In this document: in pieces, positions 1,833-10,247 of the stretch | Layout: each line of letters opens with the position of its first letter | How positions within the stretch are numbered: position 1 is the stretch's first letter | Virus record (IMG/VR): IMGVR_UViG_2654587726_000023 | Length of the DNA stretch: 11,878 nt | DNA from: a virus | Lineage: Duplodnaviria; Heunggongvirae; Uroviricota; Caudoviricetes | Reading direction: 5' to 3' (one strand) | The notes under the pieces: model-generated | What the model saw: the letters and a program-made list of their open reading frames with translations, nothing else | The model's database searches: none | What the model was told of the DNA's origin: nothing | Program-made: the position numbers and the translations under genes

Positions 1833-2978
1833 ATGAAGAAATTAATCGAACTCCGCCAGCAAAAAACCGCCCTGAAAAACCAGATGCGATCCCTGCTGGA
1901 AAAAGCCGACAGTGAAAACCGCAGTCTAACCGATGACGAAGGCAAACAGTTTGATGAACTGCGTGCAAAAGCCGATTCCCTCGACACAGAAATTTCCCGC
2001 CTCGAGTCTGTGGCTGATGAAGAACGTAACCAGCCTGGTGTTCCCGTCGAAGATAAAATCACCAAAAATGAGCTACGCTCTTACATTCTGACCGGGGAAA
2101 CCCGCAACCTGTCCGGCAGTGTTCCGGCTGATGGTGGTTATACGGTTATCCCGGAACTGAACAGAGAAATTATGCGTCAGCTTTCTGATGAGTCGGTGAT
2201 GCGTAAAATCTGTACTGTTAAAACCATTCACAGTAATGAATTTAAGCAACTGGTTTCTGCCGGGGGTGCGGTCGTGGGACACGGCGAAGAAGGTGCGGCA
2301 CGTAACCAGACGGCAACCCCAAAACTGAATGAAGTCAGTATCCGCCTGTATCCGATCTACGCTTACCCGAAAACCACTCAGGAAATTATCGATTTTTCCG
2401 AAGTCGATATTATGGGCTGGTTATCTTCTGAAATTGGCGACACTTTCGTTGATACCGAAGAAACGGATCTGGTTTCCGGTGATGGCGAGAAAAAAGCCAA
2501 AGGTTTCCTGACTTTCCCGCGCGCTACGGATAATGACAAAACCCGTCCTTTCGGTACGCTCCAGACGAAAAAAGTGACTGGCAGTCTCAGCGCCGATATG
2601 CTGATTGACCTGAAATTTACGCTGCGCAATAAGTACCGCAAAAAAGCTGTATGGGTGATGAACTCAAATACAGCCGCCTCCGCACAAAAACTGAAAAATG
2701 CCACTGGTGATTACATCTGGCGCGATCGTTTACAGGCTGGTGATCCTGATTCTCTGCTGGGGCTTCCGGTTGAATATCTGGAATTTATGCCAGACGGTGT
2801 GATTGCAGTCGGTGACTTTAAGCGCGGTTATTTCATCGTTGACCATAAAACCGGTACGCGTACCCGTCCGGATTTCAGCGAGCCTGGATTCATTAACATC
2901 TATACCCAGAAATATCTGGGCGGTGGTGTGGTGGATTCGAACGCCATCAAGATTCTGGAAATTCAGGCTGGCAAGTAA
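1833..2978 (+). CDS. Major capsid protein, HK97 family (with N-terminal coiled-coil delta/scaffold-like domain)
   Basis: 381 aa; N-terminal ~100 aa coiled-coil region followed by capsid fold motifs (…LVSGDGEKKAKGFL…, …NKYRKKAVWVMNSNTA…, …SLLGLPVEYLEFMPDG…VGDFKRGYFIVDH…) typical of HK97-type capsid proteins. Confidence 0.85.
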   Translation: MKKLIELRQQKTALKNQMRSLLEKADSENRSLTDDEGKQFDELRAKADSLDTEISRLESVADEERNQPGVPVEDKITKNELRSYILTGETRNLSGSVPADGGYTVIPELNREIMRQLSDESVMRKICTVKTIHSNEFKQLVSAGGAVVGHGEEGAARNQTATPKLNEVSIRLYPIYAYPKTTQEIIDFSEVDIMGWLSSEIGDTFVDTEETDLVSGDGEKKAKGFLTFPRATDNDKTRPFGTLQTKKVTGSLSADMLIDLKFTLRNKYRKKAVWVMNSNTAASAQKLKNATGDYIWRDRLQAGDPDSLLGLPVEYLEFMPDGVIAVGDFKRGYFIVDHKTGTRTRPDFSEPGFINIYTQKYLGGGVVDSNAIKILEIQAGK

Positions 2979-2984
2979 TGAGCA

Positions 2985-3008
2985 AAGGGGGCTTCGGCCT
3001 CCTTTTTC
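2985..3008 (+). terminator. Intrinsic terminator immediately after capsid gene
   Basis: Hairpin GGGGGC-ttcg-GCCTCC (7 bp stem with one G-U pair, UUCG tetraloop) followed by TTTTT. Confidence 0.65.
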
Positions 3009-3027
3009 AGCTTTATGGAGTACACCG

Positions 3028-3588
3028 ATGAAAAACACCGATTTTGAAATCCGTACATCTGAACTGACCGCCAGCGATAAAAAACTGGTGGGTTATGCCG
3101 TTCGCTGGAACAGCCTTTCAGAAATTATCTGGGACGAGTTTCGCGAACAGTTCACGCCGGGGGCTTTTGCTGACTATCTGGCGGCAGGTAATGATGTGCG
3201 CTGTCTGTATGAGCATGACTATACCCAACTGCTGGGGCGTACCAAATCCGGCTCACTGGTACTGACTGAGGATAACACCGGGCTACGTTTTGAACTGACA
3301 CCGCCAAATACCCAGCTTGGAAAAGATGTGCTTACGCTGGTGGAACGTGGCGATATTACAGGAATGAGCTTTGGCTTTCGCGCATTATGCGAGGAGTGGA
3401 ATATCGCGCAAAAACCGTATCTGCGTACTGTAACCGCAGCAGAACTCCGTGAAATCACGATAACATCGATGCCTGCTTATCCCGAATCCGGCGTGGAGAT
3501 TGCCCACCGTTCGTTGTTTGCACAGTACCCTGAATTACGCCCGGCAGGAAATAATCGTCATCGCTGGGCTGAACTGGCGGGGTTGTGA
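3028..3588 (+). CDS. Prohead maturation protease, HK97 family (S78/U35)
   Basis: 186 aa from ATG 3028 with GGAG RBS at 3017-3020; motifs …GYAVRWN…, …GAFADYL…, …LYEHD…LLGRTKSG…, …GDITGMSFGF… typical of HK97 prohead protease; ORF-track start at 2803 lies inside capsid gene and is rejected. Confidence 0.8.
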   Translation: MKNTDFEIRTSELTASDKKLVGYAVRWNSLSEIIWDEFREQFTPGAFADYLAAGNDVRCLYEHDYTQLLGRTKSGSLVLTEDNTGLRFELTPPNTQLGKDVLTLVERGDITGMSFGFRALCEEWNIAQKPYLRTVTAAELREITITSMPAYPESGVEIAHRSLFAQYPELRPAGNNRHRWAELAGL

Positions 3589-3589
3589 T

Positions 3590-4804
3590 ATGTGGTGGCC
3601 TTTTAGTCGTAAAAAAAGCGATCTGCGTAACCTGTCCATTGATGATTTTCTGGCGTTGTCTGGTGTACCAAATACCGGATCCGGAGAATATGTTTCTGCC
3701 GGGACGGCTGAATCATTGCCTGCTGTGATGAACGCGGTTTCTGTCATCGCTGAGGCGGTGGCCACGATGCCGTGTTACCTGTATCTGGTACGCAATGATA
3801 AGGGCAGAGAGGCGCGGGAATGGCTGGACAGTCACCCGGTAGATATTCTGCTGAATGAGCAGCCTAATTCGTGCCTGACACCTTACCAGTTTAAACGCAC
3901 AATGATGCGTCACTGCCTGCTGAACGGTAACGCCTATGCGGTTATTGAGTGGGGGCGGGACGGGCAGCCAAAATCACTTCATCCTTATGCGCCGGGGTGT
4001 GTTGTACCGGAACGCACAGGCACACACAAATACCGCTATACCATCACCGAACCCTGTACAGGAACGGTGCGCACGTATTTACAGGAAGAAGTTCTGCATC
4101 TCCGCTATGCCTCGGATGATGGCTTTCTGGGGCGTTCCCCCGTCACGATTTGCCGTGAGGCGCTGGGGCTTGGCCTTGCTCAACAGCGTCACGGAGCCAG
4201 CATTATGAAAGATGGCATGATGGCGGCAGGGATTATCACGTCAGGTGAATGGCTGGACGGCGTGAAAGGTAAACAGGCATTAGACGCACTGGAACGCTAC
4301 AAGGGGGCGAAAAATGCCGGAAAAACGCCAATCCTTGAAGGGGGCATGGATTACAGGCAGCTGGGGATGAGTAACCAGGATGCGGAATGGCTGGCCTCCC
4401 GTCGCTTCTCCATTGAAGACATCGCCAGGATGTTCAACGTGTCGCCGATTTTTCTTCAGGAATACAGCAACAGCACCTACAGCAATTTCAGTGAGGCGAG
4501 CCGCGCATTTCTGACCATGACAATGCGCCCGTGGCTGGCGAACTTCGAACAGCAAATCAAGGCCGCTTTGCTGGTGACTTCTCCCGTACCTGGTACCCGT
4601 TATCTGGTTGAGTTTGATTCAGCCGATTTACTGCGCGCCACACCCACCGAACGTTATGCCACGTATGAGAAAGGGATTAAGAGCGGGATCATGAATCCGA
4701 ACGAAGCTCGCGAACGCGAGGGTATGCCGCCGCGTGAAGGTGGTGATGAGTTCAGCCAGGCATGGAAACAGACTGTGGAAATTAAAGGGAGAAAAGATGA
4801 GTGA
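3590..4804 (+). CDS. Portal protein, HK97 family
   Basis: ~404 aa from ATG 3590 (2 nt after protease stop); portal motifs …LLNGNAYAVIEW…, …HLRY…GRSPV…, …LEGGMDY…, …SRRFSIEDIARMFNVSPIFL…. Confidence 0.85.
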   Translation: MWWPFSRKKSDLRNLSIDDFLALSGVPNTGSGEYVSAGTAESLPAVMNAVSVIAEAVATMPCYLYLVRNDKGREAREWLDSHPVDILLNEQPNSCLTPYQFKRTMMRHCLLNGNAYAVIEWGRDGQPKSLHPYAPGCVVPERTGTHKYRYTITEPCTGTVRTYLQEEVLHLRYASDDGFLGRSPVTICREALGLGLAQQRHGASIMKDGMMAAGIITSGEWLDGVKGKQALDALERYKGAKNAGKTPILEGGMDYRQLGMSNQDAEWLASRRFSIEDIARMFNVSPIFLQEYSNSTYSNFSEASRAFLTMTMRPWLANFEQQIKAALLVTSPVPGTRYLVEFDSADLLRATPTERYATYEKGIKSGIMNPNEAREREGMPPREGGDEFSQAWKQTVEIKGRKDE

Positions 4805-5099
4805 AGCCAGAATTACACCTGATGAAGTCAGGGCACATCTTCGACTTGATGATGATTTATCCGGTGAAGGCGAACTTCTGAAAATGTATACCGATGCGGC
4901 GCTGGAAGCCTGCCAGAAGCATATCGGGAAACGTTTTGAAGACGGGCTGGAATTTACCCCGGCAATGCGTGTTGGTTGCCTGATGTACATCGCTTTCCTG
5001 TACGAGAACAGGGAAGCAGTTTCACCAGTGGAGCAGTCTGAACTGCCTATGGCTATTTCTGCGCTCTGGTCGGTTTATCGTGATGTGGGGGTGTACTGA
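4797..5099 (+). CDS. Head-tail connector / DNA-packaging protein (phage gp6-like)
   Basis: 100 aa from ATG 4797 (overlaps portal stop in ATGAGTGA), RBS GGGAGA; N-terminus MSEARITPDEVRAHLRLDDD…LLKMYTDAALEA resembles gp6-like head-tail connector family. Confidence 0.55.
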   Translation: MSEARITPDEVRAHLRLDDDLSGEGELLKMYTDAALEACQKHIGKRFEDGLEFTPAMRVGCLMYIAFLYENREAVSPVEQSELPMAISALWSVYRDVGVY

Positions 5100-5539
5100 T
5101 GCCGTGGCAACCATTAAGGCGATGCACTGAGCCGGGCTGTAATAAGCGCGTGAAGTCCGGCAAGTGTGAAGAGCACAGACGGGCTGTATGGCGTGCAGAG
5201 GATGCCAGACGGGGACACCGCCGCGCGCGCGGGTATTCCCGACAGTGGGACAAATACCGCGCCCTGTACCTGAGCAAAAACCCGTTATGCGTGCGTTGTC
5301 TGGCTAAGGGGATTTATACGCCAGCTCTTGTGGTGGATCACATCATCCCCATCAATGGCGGCGGTGATGTTCTCTTCTGGCCTGAGTGGAACCACCAGGC
5401 ATTGTGCCAGACGTGCCACAACCGTAAGACGACACGGGAAGATCCAGCCACGAAAGCGAACCGTAAGGCGGGCATGTATCGCGAGCAGGAAGAACGGGCA
5501 GCACACCGTAACGACTGGATGTATGGCGATGATGACTGA
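5099..5539 (+). CDS. HNH endonuclease (packaging-associated)
   Basis: 146 aa; start ATG overlaps connector stop (TGATG); Cys-rich zinc region and HNH core …VVDHIIPINGGGDV…WNHQALCQTCHNRKT…; positioned just upstream of terS as in HNH-dependent cos packaging systems. Confidence 0.8.
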   Translation: MPWQPLRRCTEPGCNKRVKSGKCEEHRRAVWRAEDARRGHRRARGYSRQWDKYRALYLSKNPLCVRCLAKGIYTPALVVDHIIPINGGGDVLFWPEWNHQALCQTCHNRKTTREDPATKANRKAGMYREQEERAAHRNDWMYGDDD

Positions 5540-5708
5540 ACAGGAGCAAACCAGGCTGATACGTGGACTGATAAGGCAGCGTGACTTATGGAAGACACAG
5601 GAGACAGGGCACAAAGCCAACAGGACAGGGCGCACAGAACGCACCACAGCGAAGCAATTAACCGACCGTGACCGCGAGGTCATGGAATGTTTTCGCAATC
5701 GCTGGTGA
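5529..5708 (+). CDS. Hypothetical small basic protein (59 aa)
   Basis: ATG 5529 overlapping end of HNH gene in another frame; Arg-rich MMTEQEQTRLIRGLIRQRDLWKTQETGHK…; no clear RBS; could be non-coding. Confidence 0.3.
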   Translation: MMTEQEQTRLIRGLIRQRDLWKTQETGHKANRTGRTERTTAKQLTDRDREVMECFRNRW

Positions 5709-5827
5709 GGCCGTCAGAGGGGGTGGGGGTGGTTTTCAGGACGAAACCGTCCCTGCCGGACACCGACCGCCTCCTCAAATTTTTGTGCACGGGAATTTTT
5801 TTGAAAATAATTGGGCGAAAAAAGAAC

Positions 5828-6184
5828 ATGGCAAGACCACCAAAAGCCCCCGCTTACCTGGATGAAATCGCGGTCAGGCAGTGGAAGGAAAAATCGCGCC
5901 AGCTTTCCGGACGGGAAGACCTTACCCCCGCCGACTGGAGCAATCTGGAGCTGTATTGCGTTAACTACTCCATATACCGCAAAGCCGTCGAAGACCTTGC
6001 CACGCGCGGGTTCAGCATTGTTAACAGTCAGGGCAGCGAGAGCAGAAACCCTGCCCTGAGCGCAAAGGCTGACGCTGAAAGAATAATGATCAAAATGGCT
6101 TCTTTGCTGGGTTTTGACCCGGTAAGTCGCCGCAGAAATCCACCGGAAACAGAGGAAGAGGACGAGCTTGACCGCCTGGCATGA
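5828..6184 (+). CDS. Terminase small subunit (P27-like)
   Basis: 118 aa from ATG 5828; …PADWSNLELYCVNYSIYRKAVEDLATRGFSIVNSQGSESRNPALSAKADAERIMIKMASLLGFDP… resembles P27-family small terminase; directly precedes and overlaps terL. Confidence 0.65.
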   Translation: MARPPKAPAYLDEIAVRQWKEKSRQLSGREDLTPADWSNLELYCVNYSIYRKAVEDLATRGFSIVNSQGSESRNPALSAKADAERIMIKMASLLGFDPVSRRRNPPETEEEDELDRLA

Positions 6185-7829
6185 GTACGCAGAAGGCGTA
6201 AAAAACGGCAAAATTACGGCCTGTAAACGACTGAAACAGGCCGTTAAACGGTATTTTTCTGACCTTGAAAACCCCCTTTACACGTTCGATCCGGAGGTCG
6301 TGGAGCGGTTTATTGCCTTTTCCAGGGTGTGTCCGCACGTAAAAGGCGCAATGCGCGGTAGCCCCATTGAGCTGGAGCCGTGGCAGCAGTTCGCCTTTGC
6401 GTGCATCCTGGGCTTTAAGGTTAAGGCCACCGGACGGCGCAAATACACCAGCGCATTCATTGAAGTGCCGCGAAAAAATGCCAAATCCACGGTCGCCGCT
6501 ATCCTGGCTAACTGGTTTCTGGTTATGGAAAACGGGCAGCAGGATATTTACACCGCCGCCGTGAGTCGTGATCAGGCGCGGATCGTGTTTGATGATGCGC
6601 GTCAGATGTGCCTTTTATCCCGACCGTTACGAAAGCGGGTAAATATTCAGGCACACAAGGTGATACACCCGAAAACCAACAGCCTGTTAAAGCCACTGGC
6701 AGCAAAAGCGGCAACCATTGAAGGTACAAACCCGAGTCTTGCCATTGTGGATGAATATCACCTGCACCCTGACAACGGGGTTTATTCCGCGCTTGAACTG
6801 GGAATGGGGGCGCGTCCGGAGGGGCTGTTATTTGCCATCACCACATCGGGGAGCAACGTTGTTTCAGCCTGTAAACAACACTATGACTATTGCTGCCAGA
6901 TACTGGATGGTGAAGAGGTGAACGAATCCATGTTCGTGCTGATTTACGAGCTGGATGATGAAAGCGAGGTTGACGATCCGGCGATGTGGATAAAGGCGAA
7001 TCCCAATATCGATGTTTCCGTCGATCGTGAAAAACTGGCCTCAACCATCCAGAAAGCGCGGGGTATTCCGTCGCAGTGGGTGGAAATGCTCACCAAGCGA
7101 TTCAATATCTGGTGTCAGGGGGCTACACCGTGGATGGGTAGCGGTGCATGGGCGGAGTGCGCCGGAACGTTCGCGGAGGCGGATTTATACGGTCAGGAGT
7201 GCTACGCGGGGCTGGACTTATCATCAACCAGCGATATTTCCAGCGTGTGCTATGCCTTTCCGGTCGGTAAAAAGATTATGCTGGTTTCCCGTCACTATCT
7301 GCCGGAATTTCAGCTACAGAACCCCGCCAATAAAAACCGCGCCATCTATCGCCAGTGGGTAAAGGCGGGCTGGATACGCACAACACCGGGTGACTGCATT
7401 GATTATGACCGTATCCGTGATGACATCATGGCGGATGCAGAGAATTTCAATATCAGGCTGGTGGGCTTCGATACATGGAACGCCACGCACCTGAGGACGC
7501 AGCTACAGGGGGCAGGATTTGAGGTGGAGCCGTTCCCGCAAACATACCTTCGTTTCAGTCCGGCGGCGAAATCGTTCGAAGTTTTTGTTAACCGGAAGGT
7601 GATTGTGCATCGTGGCGATCCGGTGCTGGCCTGGTCAATGAGTAATGTTGTGATGCAGAGTGACGCAAACGCCAATATCAAGCCGAACAAGAAAAAATCA
7701 TCCAACAAGATAGACCCGAGCGTTGCGGCTCTGATGGCGTTTGGCACATTCCAGGCAGAACATGAGGAATTTGCATTTGATATAAGCGACAGCCACAAAG
7801 AGCGGCTTGCGGCGTTTGATGGGGTATGA
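6168..7829 (+). CDS. Terminase large subunit
   Basis: 553 aa; apparent TTG start at 6168 with GAGGA RBS, overlapping terS end; motifs …LEPWQQFAFACILGF…, ATPase region …EVPRKNAKSTVAAIL…, …AIVDEYH…, nuclease-domain region …GLDLSSTSD…. Confidence 0.9.
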   Translation: MTAWHEYAEGVKNGKITACKRLKQAVKRYFSDLENPLYTFDPEVVERFIAFSRVCPHVKGAMRGSPIELEPWQQFAFACILGFKVKATGRRKYTSAFIEVPRKNAKSTVAAILANWFLVMENGQQDIYTAAVSRDQARIVFDDARQMCLLSRPLRKRVNIQAHKVIHPKTNSLLKPLAAKAATIEGTNPSLAIVDEYHLHPDNGVYSALELGMGARPEGLLFAITTSGSNVVSACKQHYDYCCQILDGEEVNESMFVLIYELDDESEVDDPAMWIKANPNIDVSVDREKLASTIQKARGIPSQWVEMLTKRFNIWCQGATPWMGSGAWAECAGTFAEADLYGQECYAGLDLSSTSDISSVCYAFPVGKKIMLVSRHYLPEFQLQNPANKNRAIYRQWVKAGWIRTTPGDCIDYDRIRDDIMADAENFNIRLVGFDTWNATHLRTQLQGAGFEVEPFPQTYLRFSPAAKSFEVFVNRKVIVHRGDPVLAWSMSNVVMQSDANANIKPNKKKSSNKIDPSVAALMAFGTFQAEHEEFAFDISDSHKERLAAFDGV

Positions 7830-8119
7830 CGAGAATGAGCGAAACCGAACTACTAAAAATAATCCGTCGCGTTACCGGAATCAGCCAGGAAGCAGGCAAA
7901 CAGGAGGCCACGCAGCCGGACAGCGTGATAGCCGAAAATTACGCGCGTGTGGTGGCTGAGGTGATGCGCCGTGACGGTATCGAGCTTAACGGCGTGGATA
8001 TACGCAATATACGCACCAGAGTTCTGGAGTTGTTGTCATATCGTCGCCGCGTGGAGATGTACCAGGAGAAAGAAAAAATTACTTACCACTGGAAGAAGCC
8101 GGAGCGGTTACGACGTTAA
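7826..8119 (+). CDS. Hypothetical protein (97 aa) downstream of terL
   Basis: ATG 7826 overlaps terL stop (ATGA); alternative ATG at 7835; no recognisable family. Confidence 0.45.
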   Translation: MTRMSETELLKIIRRVTGISQEAGKQEATQPDSVIAENYARVVAEVMRRDGIELNGVDIRNIRTRVLELLSYRRRVEMYQEKEKITYHWKKPERLRR

Positions 8120-8123
8120 CTTG

Positions 8124-8170
8124 TGGTGACATACCGTGACGGAGAGTGACAACCAGTGACACACAGTGAC
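8124..8170. repeat. Five helically phased copies of GTGAC at exact 10-bp intervals (core at 8126, 8136, 8146, 8156, 8166)
   Basis: Direct reading: tgGTGACataccGTGACggagaGTGACaaccaGTGACacacaGTGAC. Confidence 0.7.
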
Positions 8171-8192
8171 AAAAAGACGGTATTTAAATAGA

Positions 8193-8222
8193 GTGGGTGT
8201 TTAATACCCCCCGTTTTTTTTC
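8193..8222 (+). terminator. Possible weak intrinsic terminator (short GC stem then T8 run)
   Basis: GGG…CCC short stem followed by GTTTTTTTT at 8212-8221; stem is weak. Confidence 0.3.
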
Positions 8223-8373
8223 GTGTGGTGCATGGTCAAAATGACCACGGAGAAGATACGCACCGAAGCAGAACAATTACCGTAGGTTAAAGCGACAGTA
8301 TTCACACCAGCAACCTGATTATCAATTTTCAGCCGTTCGGTGGCATCACTGGCCCCATTTTCCTGATGGGGTT

Positions 8374-8526
8374 GCGGGTTATTTGGGGGGGATTTGCGGG
8401 TTATTTTGAATGTCTCGCGGGTTACGCTTTGGCTAATATTCAAACGCATCATTTTTTAACTCATTGATATTAAAGAATAAAAAATACTTAGCAAGCGAAG
8501 ATAACCCGCTAACCCGCATAACCCGC
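8374..8526. repeat. Iteron array 2: 3 copies of GCGGGTTA(T/C) at 8374, 8396, 8417 (about 21-bp spacing), ~75 bp AT-rich spacer, then 3 abutting copies of (A)TAACCCGC at 8501-8526; same 9-mer as array 1
   Basis: Direct reading; same inverted-iteron-flanking-AT-core architecture as 140-262. Confidence 0.6.
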
Positions 8527-8879
8527 ACTGTTTTGTATATATATATACGAAAAATTGCATTCAGGAGGTGGGATCGAAATCCCTACAACCCATTGCTTAT
8601 GGGACTGCCCGCCCCGTCAAATTTTTACACCCGCGAAAAATACTTCAAGCTGGTGGGCATGATGCCGATATGGGGATCCCCATGTCGACATTAACGCCCC
8701 TCATGAATTGGCGTGCTTCCCCCTGGAAAGATGACCCGCCTGTATATTTCTTGTGTCTATTTGTTCCACGTTGTTTCATACAGTGCACCGAACGGTGTAG
8801 TTACTGGTGTAGTCATTTTGCGATTTTTAAAGTTATCTAAGATATTATTTGTCGCTTAAATTCAATTAGTTATGAGTAT

Positions 8880-10247
8880 TTGATTATAAATAGCGGATAT
8901 GAATATCCGGCGAAAAAAATCACCATCAACCTTGCTCCAGCCGATCTGCCAAAAGAAGGGGGACGATATGATTTGCCTATCGCTATTGCGTTACTGGCGG
9001 CCTCAGAACAGCTTACAGCCAATAAGTTAGATGAATATGAATTAGTCGGAGAACTGGCGCTTACAGGCGCTCTGCGTGGCGTTCCCGGCGCAATCTCCAG
9101 TGCAACTGAAGCTATTAAGTCGGGCAGAAAAATTATCGTCGCGAAAGATAACGAAGATGAAGTGGGGCTAATTAACGGTGAAGGATGCCTGATAGCCGAT
9201 CATCTGCAGGCTGTCTGCGCGTTTCTGGAAGGTAAGCACGCTCTCGAACACCCGAAACCAACTAATGCAGTATCCCGGGCGCTACAACATGATCTCAGTG
9301 ATGTTGTCGGTCAGGAGCAAGGAAAGCGAGGACTGGAAATTACCGCCGCTGGCGGGCACAACCTTTTACTGATTGGACCGCCGGGAACAGGTAAAACAAT
9401 GCTCGCCAGCCGTATTAATGGCCTTTTGCCAGATTTAAGCAATGAAGAGGCACTGGAGAGCGCTGCGATATTAAGTCTGGTAAATGCTGAATCAGTACAA
9501 AAACAATGGCGGCAGCGCCCGTTCCGCTCACCTCATCACAGTGCGTCGTTAACTGCGATGGTGGGCGGTGGTGCAATTCCAGGGCCAGGTGAAATTTCGC
9601 TGGCGCATAACGGCGTGCTTTTTCTTGATGAGCTACCTGAATTTGAACGGCGTACACTGGATGCCTTGCGAGAGCCGATTGAATCCGGGCAGATCCATCT
9701 TTCACGCACACGAGCAAAAATAACCTATCCAGCCCGTTTCCAGCTTGTCGCGGCAATGAATCCCAGCCCTACCGGACATTATCAGGGAAACCATAACCGC
9801 TGCACACCAGAACAGACATTACGTTATCTCAACCGGCTCTCGGGGCCCTTTCTCGACCGCTTCGATCTCTCACTGGAGATCCCATTACCGCCCCCCGGCA
9901 TTTTGAGTAAAACGGTAGTGCCGGGAGAAAACAGCACCACCGTTAAACAACGTGTAATGGCCGCCAGAGAGCGCCAATTTAAGCGGCAGAATAAACTGAA
10001 CGCCTGGCTGGATAATCCGGAAATACGCCAATTCTGCAAGCTTGAAAGCGAAGATGCGCAGTGGCTGGAAGAAACGCTGATCCATCTGGGGTTATCGATT
10101 CGTGCCTGGCAGCGGTTATTGAAAGTTGCACGAACCATTGCTGATATTGATCAGTCTGACATTATCACACGTCAGCATTTGCAGGAGGCAGTTAGCTATC
10201 GTGCGATTGACCGTTTGCTCATCCATCTGCAAAAACTACTGACATAA
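8880..10247 (+). CDS. comM: ComM (YifB) Mg-chelatase-like AAA+ competence protein, 5-prime truncated by island insertion
   Basis: 455 aa frame beginning IINSGYEYPAKKITINLAPADLPKEGGRYDLPIAIALL…, Walker A GPPGTGKT; corresponds to E. coli YifB from about residue 51 onward as I recall it; upstream in-frame sequence diverges and hits a stop at 8838-8840; only a TTG at 8880 with no RBS. Confidence 0.85.
   Translation: MIINSGYEYPAKKITINLAPADLPKEGGRYDLPIAIALLAASEQLTANKLDEYELVGELALTGALRGVPGAISSATEAIKSGRKIIVAKDNEDEVGLINGEGCLIADHLQAVCAFLEGKHALEHPKPTNAVSRALQHDLSDVVGQEQGKRGLEITAAGGHNLLLIGPPGTGKTMLASRINGLLPDLSNEEALESAAILSLVNAESVQKQWRQRPFRSPHHSASLTAMVGGGAIPGPGEISLAHNGVLFLDELPEFERRTLDALREPIESGQIHLSRTRAKITYPARFQLVAAMNPSPTGHYQGNHNRCTPEQTLRYLNRLSGPFLDRFDLSLEIPLPPPGILSKTVVPGENSTTVKQRVMAARERQFKRQNKLNAWLDNPEIRQFCKLESEDAQWLEETLIHLGLSIRAWQRLLKVARTIADIDQSDIITRQHLQEAVSYRAIDRLLIHLQKLLT

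Follow-up and report, generated by a model that had tools for sequence, protein, structure and literature searches.

Why should a set of HK97-type head and packaging genes run from the capsid gene to the large terminase gene, when HK97-like temperate phages place terS and terL first, followed by portal, protease, capsid, connectors and then the tail genes? This question is raised by an 11,878-nucleotide stretch of viral DNA (IMG/VR record IMGVR_UViG_2654587726_000023; hereafter the window, to which coordinates refer unless another sequence is named). A first-pass annotation of the window had reported the order capsid, protease, portal, connector, HNH, small open reading frame (ORF), terS, terL on one strand, and had regarded it as non-canonical. 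We conclude with high confidence that the region is an operon for packaging and morphogenesis, and that the element to which it belongs, inserted in the Escherichia coli gene yifB, is a capsid-forming phage-inducible chromosomal island (cf-PICI) from the EcCIEDL933 family. The order is canonical for proteobacterial cf-PICIs and had already been published, which the first-pass annotation overlooked: these islands have the conserved order capsid-protease-portal-head connectors, then hnh-terS-terL, and the packaging modules of phages and of PICIs "have different genetic organisations" (Alqurainy et al., bioRxiv 10.1101/2022.09.08.507074). The island in the window shows this published order. Its layout is a conserved signature of a proteobacterial satellite lineage and is not peculiar to this locus.

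Packaging genes run from capsid to terminase on one strand

Genes were assigned from an ORF listing and by Pfam and PHROG profile searches. The packaging genes and the ORF that follows them are:

1833-2978, + strand: major capsid protein, HK97 fold (PF05065, E=7e-61, from residue 101; PHROG 10)
3028-3588, + strand: prohead serine protease, S78, HK97 family (PF04586, E=1e-44)
3590-4804, + strand: portal (PF04860, E=2e-91)
4797-5099, + strand: gp6-like head-tail adaptor Ad1 (PF05135, E=4e-5; PHROG 40 'head-tail adaptor Ad1', E=5e-29)
5099-5539, + strand: HNH endonuclease, packaging accessory of HNH-cos terminases (PF01844, E=9e-10; PHROG 144, E=7e-45)
5523-5708, + strand: 61-aa ORF (orf61)
5828-6184, + strand: small terminase subunit TerS, P27 family (PF05119, E=4e-23)
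6168-7829, + strand: large terminase subunit TerL, ATPase and nuclease domains (PF03354, E=4e-26; PF20441, E=2e-52)
7835-8119, + strand: conserved 94-aa ORF, found after terL in all E. coli islands examined

Both types of profile search bear out the reported order. They also rule out that capsid and portal had been swapped or misassigned, a possibility that the first-pass annotation had left to be checked, since the former matches PF05065 and the latter PF04860. The capsid protein has an N-terminal coiled-coil delta (scaffolding) domain of ∼95-100 aa, and its best PDB match is 9GYI ('Major head protein', 385 aa, E=1e-184), which is of the same length as the EcCIEDL933 capsid protein. The 94-aa ORF after terL has no Pfam match.

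Most junctions between these genes are tight. The portal and Ad1 genes overlap by 8 nt (ATGAGTGA), Ad1 and HNH by 1 nt (TGATG), HNH and orf61 by 17 nt, and terS and terL also by 17 nt, with TTG as the terL start codon. The first-pass annotation had described the portal-connector, connector-HNH and terS-terL junctions in the same way; the protease stop and the portal start, which it had placed 2 nt apart, are separated by a single nucleotide (TGAtATG). Two longer gaps were absent from it, namely a 49-nt capsid-protease spacer, in which a GC-rich hairpin precedes a T run, and a 119-nt spacer between orf61 and terS (5709-5827). Judged from this arrangement, co-transcription of the packaging genes is plausible.

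The nearest true phages by capsid are SfI, SfII, SfIV, ST64B and phiP27, at 33-37% identity over the capsid. These phages keep the canonical order, as shown for SfII (terS-terL-portal-protease-capsid-Ad1-Hc1, then tail genes), the proteins of which are 30-36% identical to those of the window island. The departure from the HK97-type canon is thus real, and the further assertion that it is no simple rotation or inversion also holds, because capsid, protease and portal come in reverse order although all genes lie on one strand. Where relatives have both connector genes, the head-closure gene Hc1 also precedes Ad1. The gene families themselves are shared with HK97-type HNH-cos phages (HK97-fold capsid with delta domain, S78 protease, portal, Ad1, P27-type TerS, TerL and HNH), but those phages encode tails and lysis functions, whereas the window island encodes neither. 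The order capsid-protease-portal-...-hnh-terS-terL can serve as a quick diagnostic of the cf-PICI class.

A separate observation concerns a lambdoid prophage of EDL933 (L012, 39209-46882), which according to its RefSeq annotation carries HNH, terS, terL, a 645-aa 'major capsid protein', a small ORF and a frameshifted 'portal protein'. Going by this annotation, ordinary E. coli prophages too may depart from the textbook order.

The module recurs in independent genomes

An assembly misjoin around 1600-1830 or 2980-3030 could have produced the observed order, and the first-pass annotation had singled out these two intervals for inspection. Both are, however, continuous and identical in multiple independently finished genomes, and the same junctions occur in EcCIEDL933, in the E. 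coli islands of CREC-2 and CFSAN064036, in the Klebsiella element vB_KppS-Ant (LR881103.1; hereafter KppS-Ant) and in the Pasteurella element Pmp8 (OR544139.1). In a synteny comparison based on phage and E. coli collections, the block from portal to TerL matched 538 of 5426 complete E. coli genomes, with a coverage of at least 80% in 528, and CREC-2, CFSAN064036, KppS-Ant and Pmp8 have the same module order. The CREC-2 island is integrated next to thiM, and that of CFSAN064036 has a different integrase and adjoins a tRNA-Ile gene. Because the module recurs in 538 E. coli genomes as well as in Klebsiella and Pasteurella elements, misassembly is excluded; the continuity in finished genomes and the 528 genomes with high coverage refute a misjoin, to which we assign a practically negligible probability.

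A capsid-protein scan of genome contigs yielded seven loci, of which one, in Rosenbergiella, is partly deleted, while the others are distant, phage-like loci of Clostridia with the order terL-portal-...-capsid. The Rosenbergiella sp. YN46 locus (L002, 4158-7129) is a degraded relative. Its capsid gene (88% identical) and protease gene are intact, the portal gene breaks off near residue 251, where the final 83 codons of terL follow directly, and the connectors, HNH, terS and most of terL are deleted.

The window carries the right-hand part of an island in yifB

The first 8.9 kb of the window form the right-hand part of a 15.0-kb island in E. coli yifB, and are 99.7% identical to several independent finished E. 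coli chromosomes. In one such 99.7% identical genome (L001) the island measures 15,048 bp between its 16-nt att cores. These cores are copies of the repeat ATTAT(C/A)AATAGCGGAT (15/16 nt identical; L001 2833-2848 and 17881-17896), which bracket the element within yifB. The right boundary lies in the window:

8882-8897, + strand: attR core (ATTATAAATAGCGGAT), right copy of the 16-nt repeat, where the island meets the 3' part of yifB
8880-10247: 3' part of yifB, to the right of the island

To the right of the yifB remainder the window contains maoP, hdfR and two tRNA genes; an Rfam scan of the window returned these two chromosomal tRNAs at the right end and nothing else.

The complete element can be read in L001. 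It encodes a tyrosine integrase, an AlpA-like helix-turn-helix (HTH) regulator, an Icd-like protein, a DUF4222 protein, a DUF927 primase-replicase, SSB, ProQ and the packaging proteins. Published cf-PICIs span about 10-18 kb (bioRxiv 10.1101/2025.02.11.637232), and the att-bounded island, at 15,048 bp, falls within that range. The integrase, alpA-type regulator and replication module that characterize such islands are present in L001, to the left of the window, and the capsid, protease, portal, HNH, TerS and TerL genes of the island's own are all six intact, with Pfam scores above the gathering cut-offs. Genes for lysis are lacking, and so is a full tail module: no tail or lysis gene is annotated in the L001 island, and none was found among the window ORFs by ORF list, Pfam or PHROG. 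Packaging proteins 50-90% similar to those of EcCIEDL933 are a published mark of the class (bioRxiv 10.1101/2022.09.08.507074), and those encoded in the window are 56-93% identical to their EcCIEDL933 counterparts. Of the two head-tail joining genes of a cf-PICI, adaptor and connector, the island carries Ad1 only. The arrangement of an HK97-like temperate phage is not what we find here, since the gene order is another one and tail genes are missing. For annotation purposes the 15-kb yifB element is best described as a cf-PICI satellite and not as a cryptic HK97-like prophage.

Comparison with EcCIEDL933 and other elements

EcCIEDL933 is the experimentally mobile prototype of the cf-PICIs (Alqurainy et al., bioRxiv 10.1101/2022.09.08.507074), and its capsid structure has been reported (bioRxiv 10.1101/2025.02.11.637232). 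We located it in the EDL933 chromosome (L014, 20329-34760). It shares 17 colinear proteins with the window island, from the integrase to the last ORF: int, the alpA-like HTH gene, the icd-like gene, DUF4222, DUF927, ssb and a small ORF come in this order, followed by the packaging genes. Amino acid identities are 84% for the integrase, 89% for the AlpA-like protein and 83% for the DUF927 protein. In the packaging region they are 74% for the capsid, 61% for the protease, 80% for the portal, 56% for Ad1, 84% for HNH, 78% for orf61 (compared with the EDL933 ORF in the same slot), 88% for TerS, 93% for TerL and 77% for the final ORF. The two islands are also close in size (15,048 bp versus 15.4 kb). 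They differ in that EcCIEDL933 has Hc1 and the window island does not, and in their integration sites, which are yifB for the window island and the interval between roxA and phoQ for EcCIEDL933. The value of the gene order as a discovery is small, as it is a documented hallmark of proteobacterial cf-PICIs and the island is close to the prototype.

With each gene of the EcCIEDL933 packaging module mutated in turn, the island is no longer transferred, while phage transfer is unaffected; the exception is gene 1792, mutation of which severely reduces island transfer (bioRxiv 10.1101/2022.09.08.507074). From its position, the gene numbering (the capsid gene being 1786) and the 78% identity, we infer that orf61 is the ortholog of gene 1792.

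KppS-Ant and Pmp8, both labelled 'phage', have the same packaging order as the window island, with protein identities of 58-86% and 47-70%, respectively, and both have Hc1 before Ad1. They differ from the window island in their accessory and regulatory genes and in their hosts. The vB_KppS-Ant sequence, which derives from virions, matches part of the K. pneumoniae DSM 30104 genome at >99% identity, and we take it to be the cf-PICI KpCIDSM30104 of bioRxiv 10.1101/2025.02.11.637232. It had been described as a 'filamentous ssDNA phage', yet it is a cf-PICI. Classical PICIs of Gram-negative bacteria (EcCICFT073, EcCIED1a) share with the window island the int, alpA and rep backbone and the alpA-mediated induction by a helper, but they have no capsid, portal or terminase of their own and redirect the helper TerS via Rpp.

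These comparisons also bear on the idea that the locus is what remains of an HK97-like prophage in decay, deprived of its tail and lysis genes and scrambled by rearrangements, so that the gene order would be an accident without function. The absence of tail and lysis genes and of one connector gene would fit such decay, and the Rosenbergiella relative is clearly degraded. Yet all eight packaging ORFs are intact and tightly coupled, and the same order and size are found in 528 E. coli genomes, at several integration sites and with different integrases, as well as in Klebsiella and Pasteurella. Moreover, DNA of homologous islands has been obtained in packaged form from virions and the prototype is experimentally mobile. 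We therefore hold a prophage remnant to be very improbable.

Some points do weigh against the assignment of the region to a cf-PICI. The left half of the island lies outside the window and is read from the 99.7% identical genome L001. The window island itself is known from its genes, and the experiments concern its relatives: helper induction, small (T=4) island-made capsids, exclusive self-packaging and the use of helper tails have been shown only for EcCIEDL933 and KpCIDSM30104, and it is by analogy with these that the window island would depend on a helper and form small capsids. Its operon structure and cos cut site are predictions. A further objection comes from Hc1. Neither a homologue nor a remnant of it was found in the whole island (tblastn with three Hc1 proteins, best E=0.67), and its loss is set against the finding that all packaging-module mutants of EcCIEDL933 except that in the hypothetical gene 1792 lost transfer completely.

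A probable cos site in the spacer upstream of terS

The first-pass annotation had placed cos between HNH and terS, and this proposal gains support from two virion-derived linear Klebsiella assemblies of homologous islands, both of which break in the spacer preceding terS. The corresponding feature of the window is:

5709-5827, + strand: conserved non-coding spacer, which most likely holds cos

The spacer contains the blocks GGGGTGGGGG, CTCAAATTTTT and GGGAATTTTTT, which are common to EcCIEDL933 and in part to Pasteurella Pmp8. In HNH-cos phages such as HK97, cos lies between hnh and terS, as reportedly described by Kala et al. in 2014. The linear record of KppS-Ant (LR881103.1) starts 22 nt before terS and ends 37 nt past the small ORF. 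The second assembly, PQ569648.1, ends in the last codons of the small ORF, and its island part opens with the first codons of terS, at which point unrelated sequence is fused to it. Both records lack 70-130 nt of spacer that are kept in the other islands examined. Such a lack of spacer nucleotides in both assemblies is expected if the physical ends lie there, and it does not in itself fix the position of the cut. The DNA of KpCIDSM30104 has cohesive cos ends (bioRxiv 10.1101/2025.02.11.637232). For the window island it is well supported but not proven that the packaged DNA would begin with terS-terL, continue across the att junction into int and the replication genes, and finish with the segment from capsid through HNH.

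PQ569648.1 is also noteworthy as a record. Entitled 'Klebsiella phage P12620-1' and 106.5 kb in length (L017, locus 2645-18504), it carries in its last ∼16 kb a complete cf-PICI, from terS to the small ORF after HNH, and it seems to be a chimera in which a phage and a co-packaged satellite were assembled together.

Taken together with what is known of the prototype, the gene content suggests how the island could propagate. By analogy, a helper phage would turn on the island's alpA, upon which the island would excise and replicate by means of its DUF927 primase-replicase and SSB. A single rightward operon would then be expressed, supplying a capsid protein with its own delta domain, the S78 protease, portal, adaptor, HNH, the small ORF, TerS and TerL, and these products would assemble into small, island-specific proheads. 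The TerS-TerL-HNH complex would cut the island's cos in the 119-nt spacer and package unit-length 15-kb DNA, with terS-terL at its start and capsid through HNH at its end, and the helper would supply tails only.

A sub-lineage without the head-closure gene

Hc1 (PF05521; E=7e-23 for the EDL933 protein) lies between portal and Ad1 in EcCIEDL933, CREC-2, KppS-Ant, Pmp8 and P12620-1, and Ad1 is the sole connector gene of the window island. Relative to the CREC-2 island, which is 96% identical elsewhere, ∼467 nt have been swapped for ∼125 unrelated nt. The swapped stretch takes in the final codons of portal, the entire Hc1 gene and the beginning of Ad1 (about 40 codons of the latter, by a protein comparison made by eye):

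4772-4896: replaced junction of portal C-terminus and Ad1 N-terminus (compare L015 4183-4649 and L014 31103-31441)

The ORF after terL was considered as a diverged Hc1 and rejected.

This Hc1-less junction is present in 143 of the 5426 complete E. coli genomes, about a quarter of this family's E. coli islands, and the islands that have it differ in integrase and in site, examples being yifB (window) and the position beside tRNA-Ile (CFSAN064036). Because of this spread over 143 genomes and over different integrases and sites, the Hc1-less form represents a propagated sub-lineage and not a private lesion.

The junction raises the question whether the window island is only a partly autonomous derivative, which after the loss of Hc1 makes its own heads but takes both stopper and tail from the helper, or even a non-transferable dead end. 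Such an outcome would be in keeping with the absence of a gene that EcCIEDL933, CREC-2, KppS-Ant, Pmp8 and P12620-1 all have, and with the unrelated sequence that has taken the place of the portal C-terminus, the Ad1 N-terminus and what lay between, given that adaptor and connector proteins determine the tail compatibility of cf-PICIs. The presence of the Hc1-less junction in 143 genomes, with different integrases and sites, argues on the other hand for continued mobility, although it is silent on the source of the stopper. On balance we regard a partly autonomous or immobile derivative as rather unlikely. If functional, the Hc1-less islands could tentatively be seen as a cf-PICI sub-class that either needs no dedicated stopper to make stable tail-less heads filled with DNA, or obtains stopper as well as tail from the helper; we put this forward as a speculative proposal. 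If it is true, the published view that these satellites 'only steal tails' would change. The Hc1-less sub-lineage, along with the post-capsid hairpin and the shared repeat motif described below, may bear on satellite regulation and on the docking of heads and tails.

Candidate control elements around the capsid gene

Several sequence elements of potential regulatory relevance flank the capsid gene or recur elsewhere in the island. Their positions, together with that of the ORF upstream, are:

1310-1558, + strand: 82-aa ORF (orf82)
1566-1594, + strand: intrinsic-terminator-like hairpin and T run after orf82 (11-bp stem by RNAfold; position kept in CREC-2 and EDL933)
1598-1635, + strand: control region upstream of the packaging operon, with a TTTTGTAAATTATTTGT block that is invariant in five islands
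1612-1625 and 1622-1635, + strand: two copies of the TTGTTCCANGTTGT motif, 10 bp apart
1655-1682, + strand: sigma-70-like promoter match TTTACA-16-TATGTT, candidate packaging-operon promoter by consensus match only
1687-1713, + strand: hairpin or palindrome GTGGCACTCAGACGTGAGCCGCCAC (GTGGC ACTCA GACG TGAG CC GCCAC), putative capsid-gene leader or operator, pairs kept in five islands
2984-3007, + strand: GC-rich hairpin and T run directly after the capsid stop codon (RNAfold, -17.7 kcal/mol)
8761-8774, + strand: right-end copy of TTGTTCCANGTTGT in the attP arm, with an EcCIEDL933 site at the same position
L001 2881-2957, 4292-4345, 10612-10635 and 17759-17772: TTGTTCCANGTTGT sites
L014 (EDL933) 20240-20263, 21607-21650, 27883-27906 and 35478-35491: TTGTTCCANGTTGT sites

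The terminator-like hairpin at 1566-1594 probably closes the upstream transcription unit of replication and accessory genes. In a consensus scan for promoters and terminators, match counts were no higher than in shuffled sequences, and hence the scan does not define the operon.

The TTGTTCCANGTTGT motif, many copies of which are spaced 10 bp from each other, is strongly over-represented, with 3 observed against 0.36 expected occurrences in the window, 10 against 0.92 in L001, and 9 against 1.08 in the EDL933 stretch. In both the window island and EcCIEDL933 it clusters at the same four places, namely upstream of int, in the int-alpA spacer, upstream of the capsid operon and at the right end, whereas KppS-Ant has a different upstream repeat motif. 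It may represent a site for an island regulator (AlpA-like, Xis-like or an integrase of the arm-binding type) that couples excision to control of the late operon. No description of the motif was found in the literature consulted.

For the palindrome at 1687-1713, the inner stem in EcCIEDL933 has three compensatory double changes (CTCA/TGAG to CCAG/CTGG); the element might form a 5' stem-loop in the RNA or serve as a palindromic operator. The post-capsid hairpin is found at the same place, with a different sequence, in EcCIEDL933, KppS-Ant, Pmp8 and Rosenbergiella (L014, L009, L010 and L002), at -17 to -20 kcal/mol and usually with a T-rich tract. It may act as a leaky terminator or as an mRNA stabiliser that favours capsid expression. 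A capsid-first operon combined with such a terminator or stabilising hairpin would yield capsid in excess of protease and portal, which would fit the stoichiometry of a small head.

Additional features of the island

Upstream of the packaging operon, the window contains two further genes:

327-752, + strand: SSB
789-1319, + strand: ProQ/FinO-family gene (PF04352, E=6e-24), in an accessory slot just upstream of the packaging operon

The accessory slot is variable. The ProQ/FinO-family gene of the window island has its counterpart in a PerC-family regulator gene in EcCIEDL933 and CREC-2, and the slot is empty in CFSAN064036. With the ProQ/FinO-family gene, the satellite would carry a putative RNA chaperone as cargo.

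The DUF927 primase-replicase gene is closely followed, at 138-255 (L001 9137-9254), by tandem 21-nt repeats (TAACCCGCAAAA...) and a GTTGCGGGTTAT repeat. It is plausible that these form the iteron region of the island's replication origin.

Between the last island ORF and attR there are ∼760 nt (8120-8880) with a low GC content (0.43-0.44), which include an 83-aa ORF on the minus strand (8201-8452) that has no Pfam match. Over its first 564 nt this segment aligns with the right end of the CREC-2 island at 93% identity, and another part of it matches EcCIEDL933; because of these matches the segment belongs to the island, as attP arm or accessory slot.

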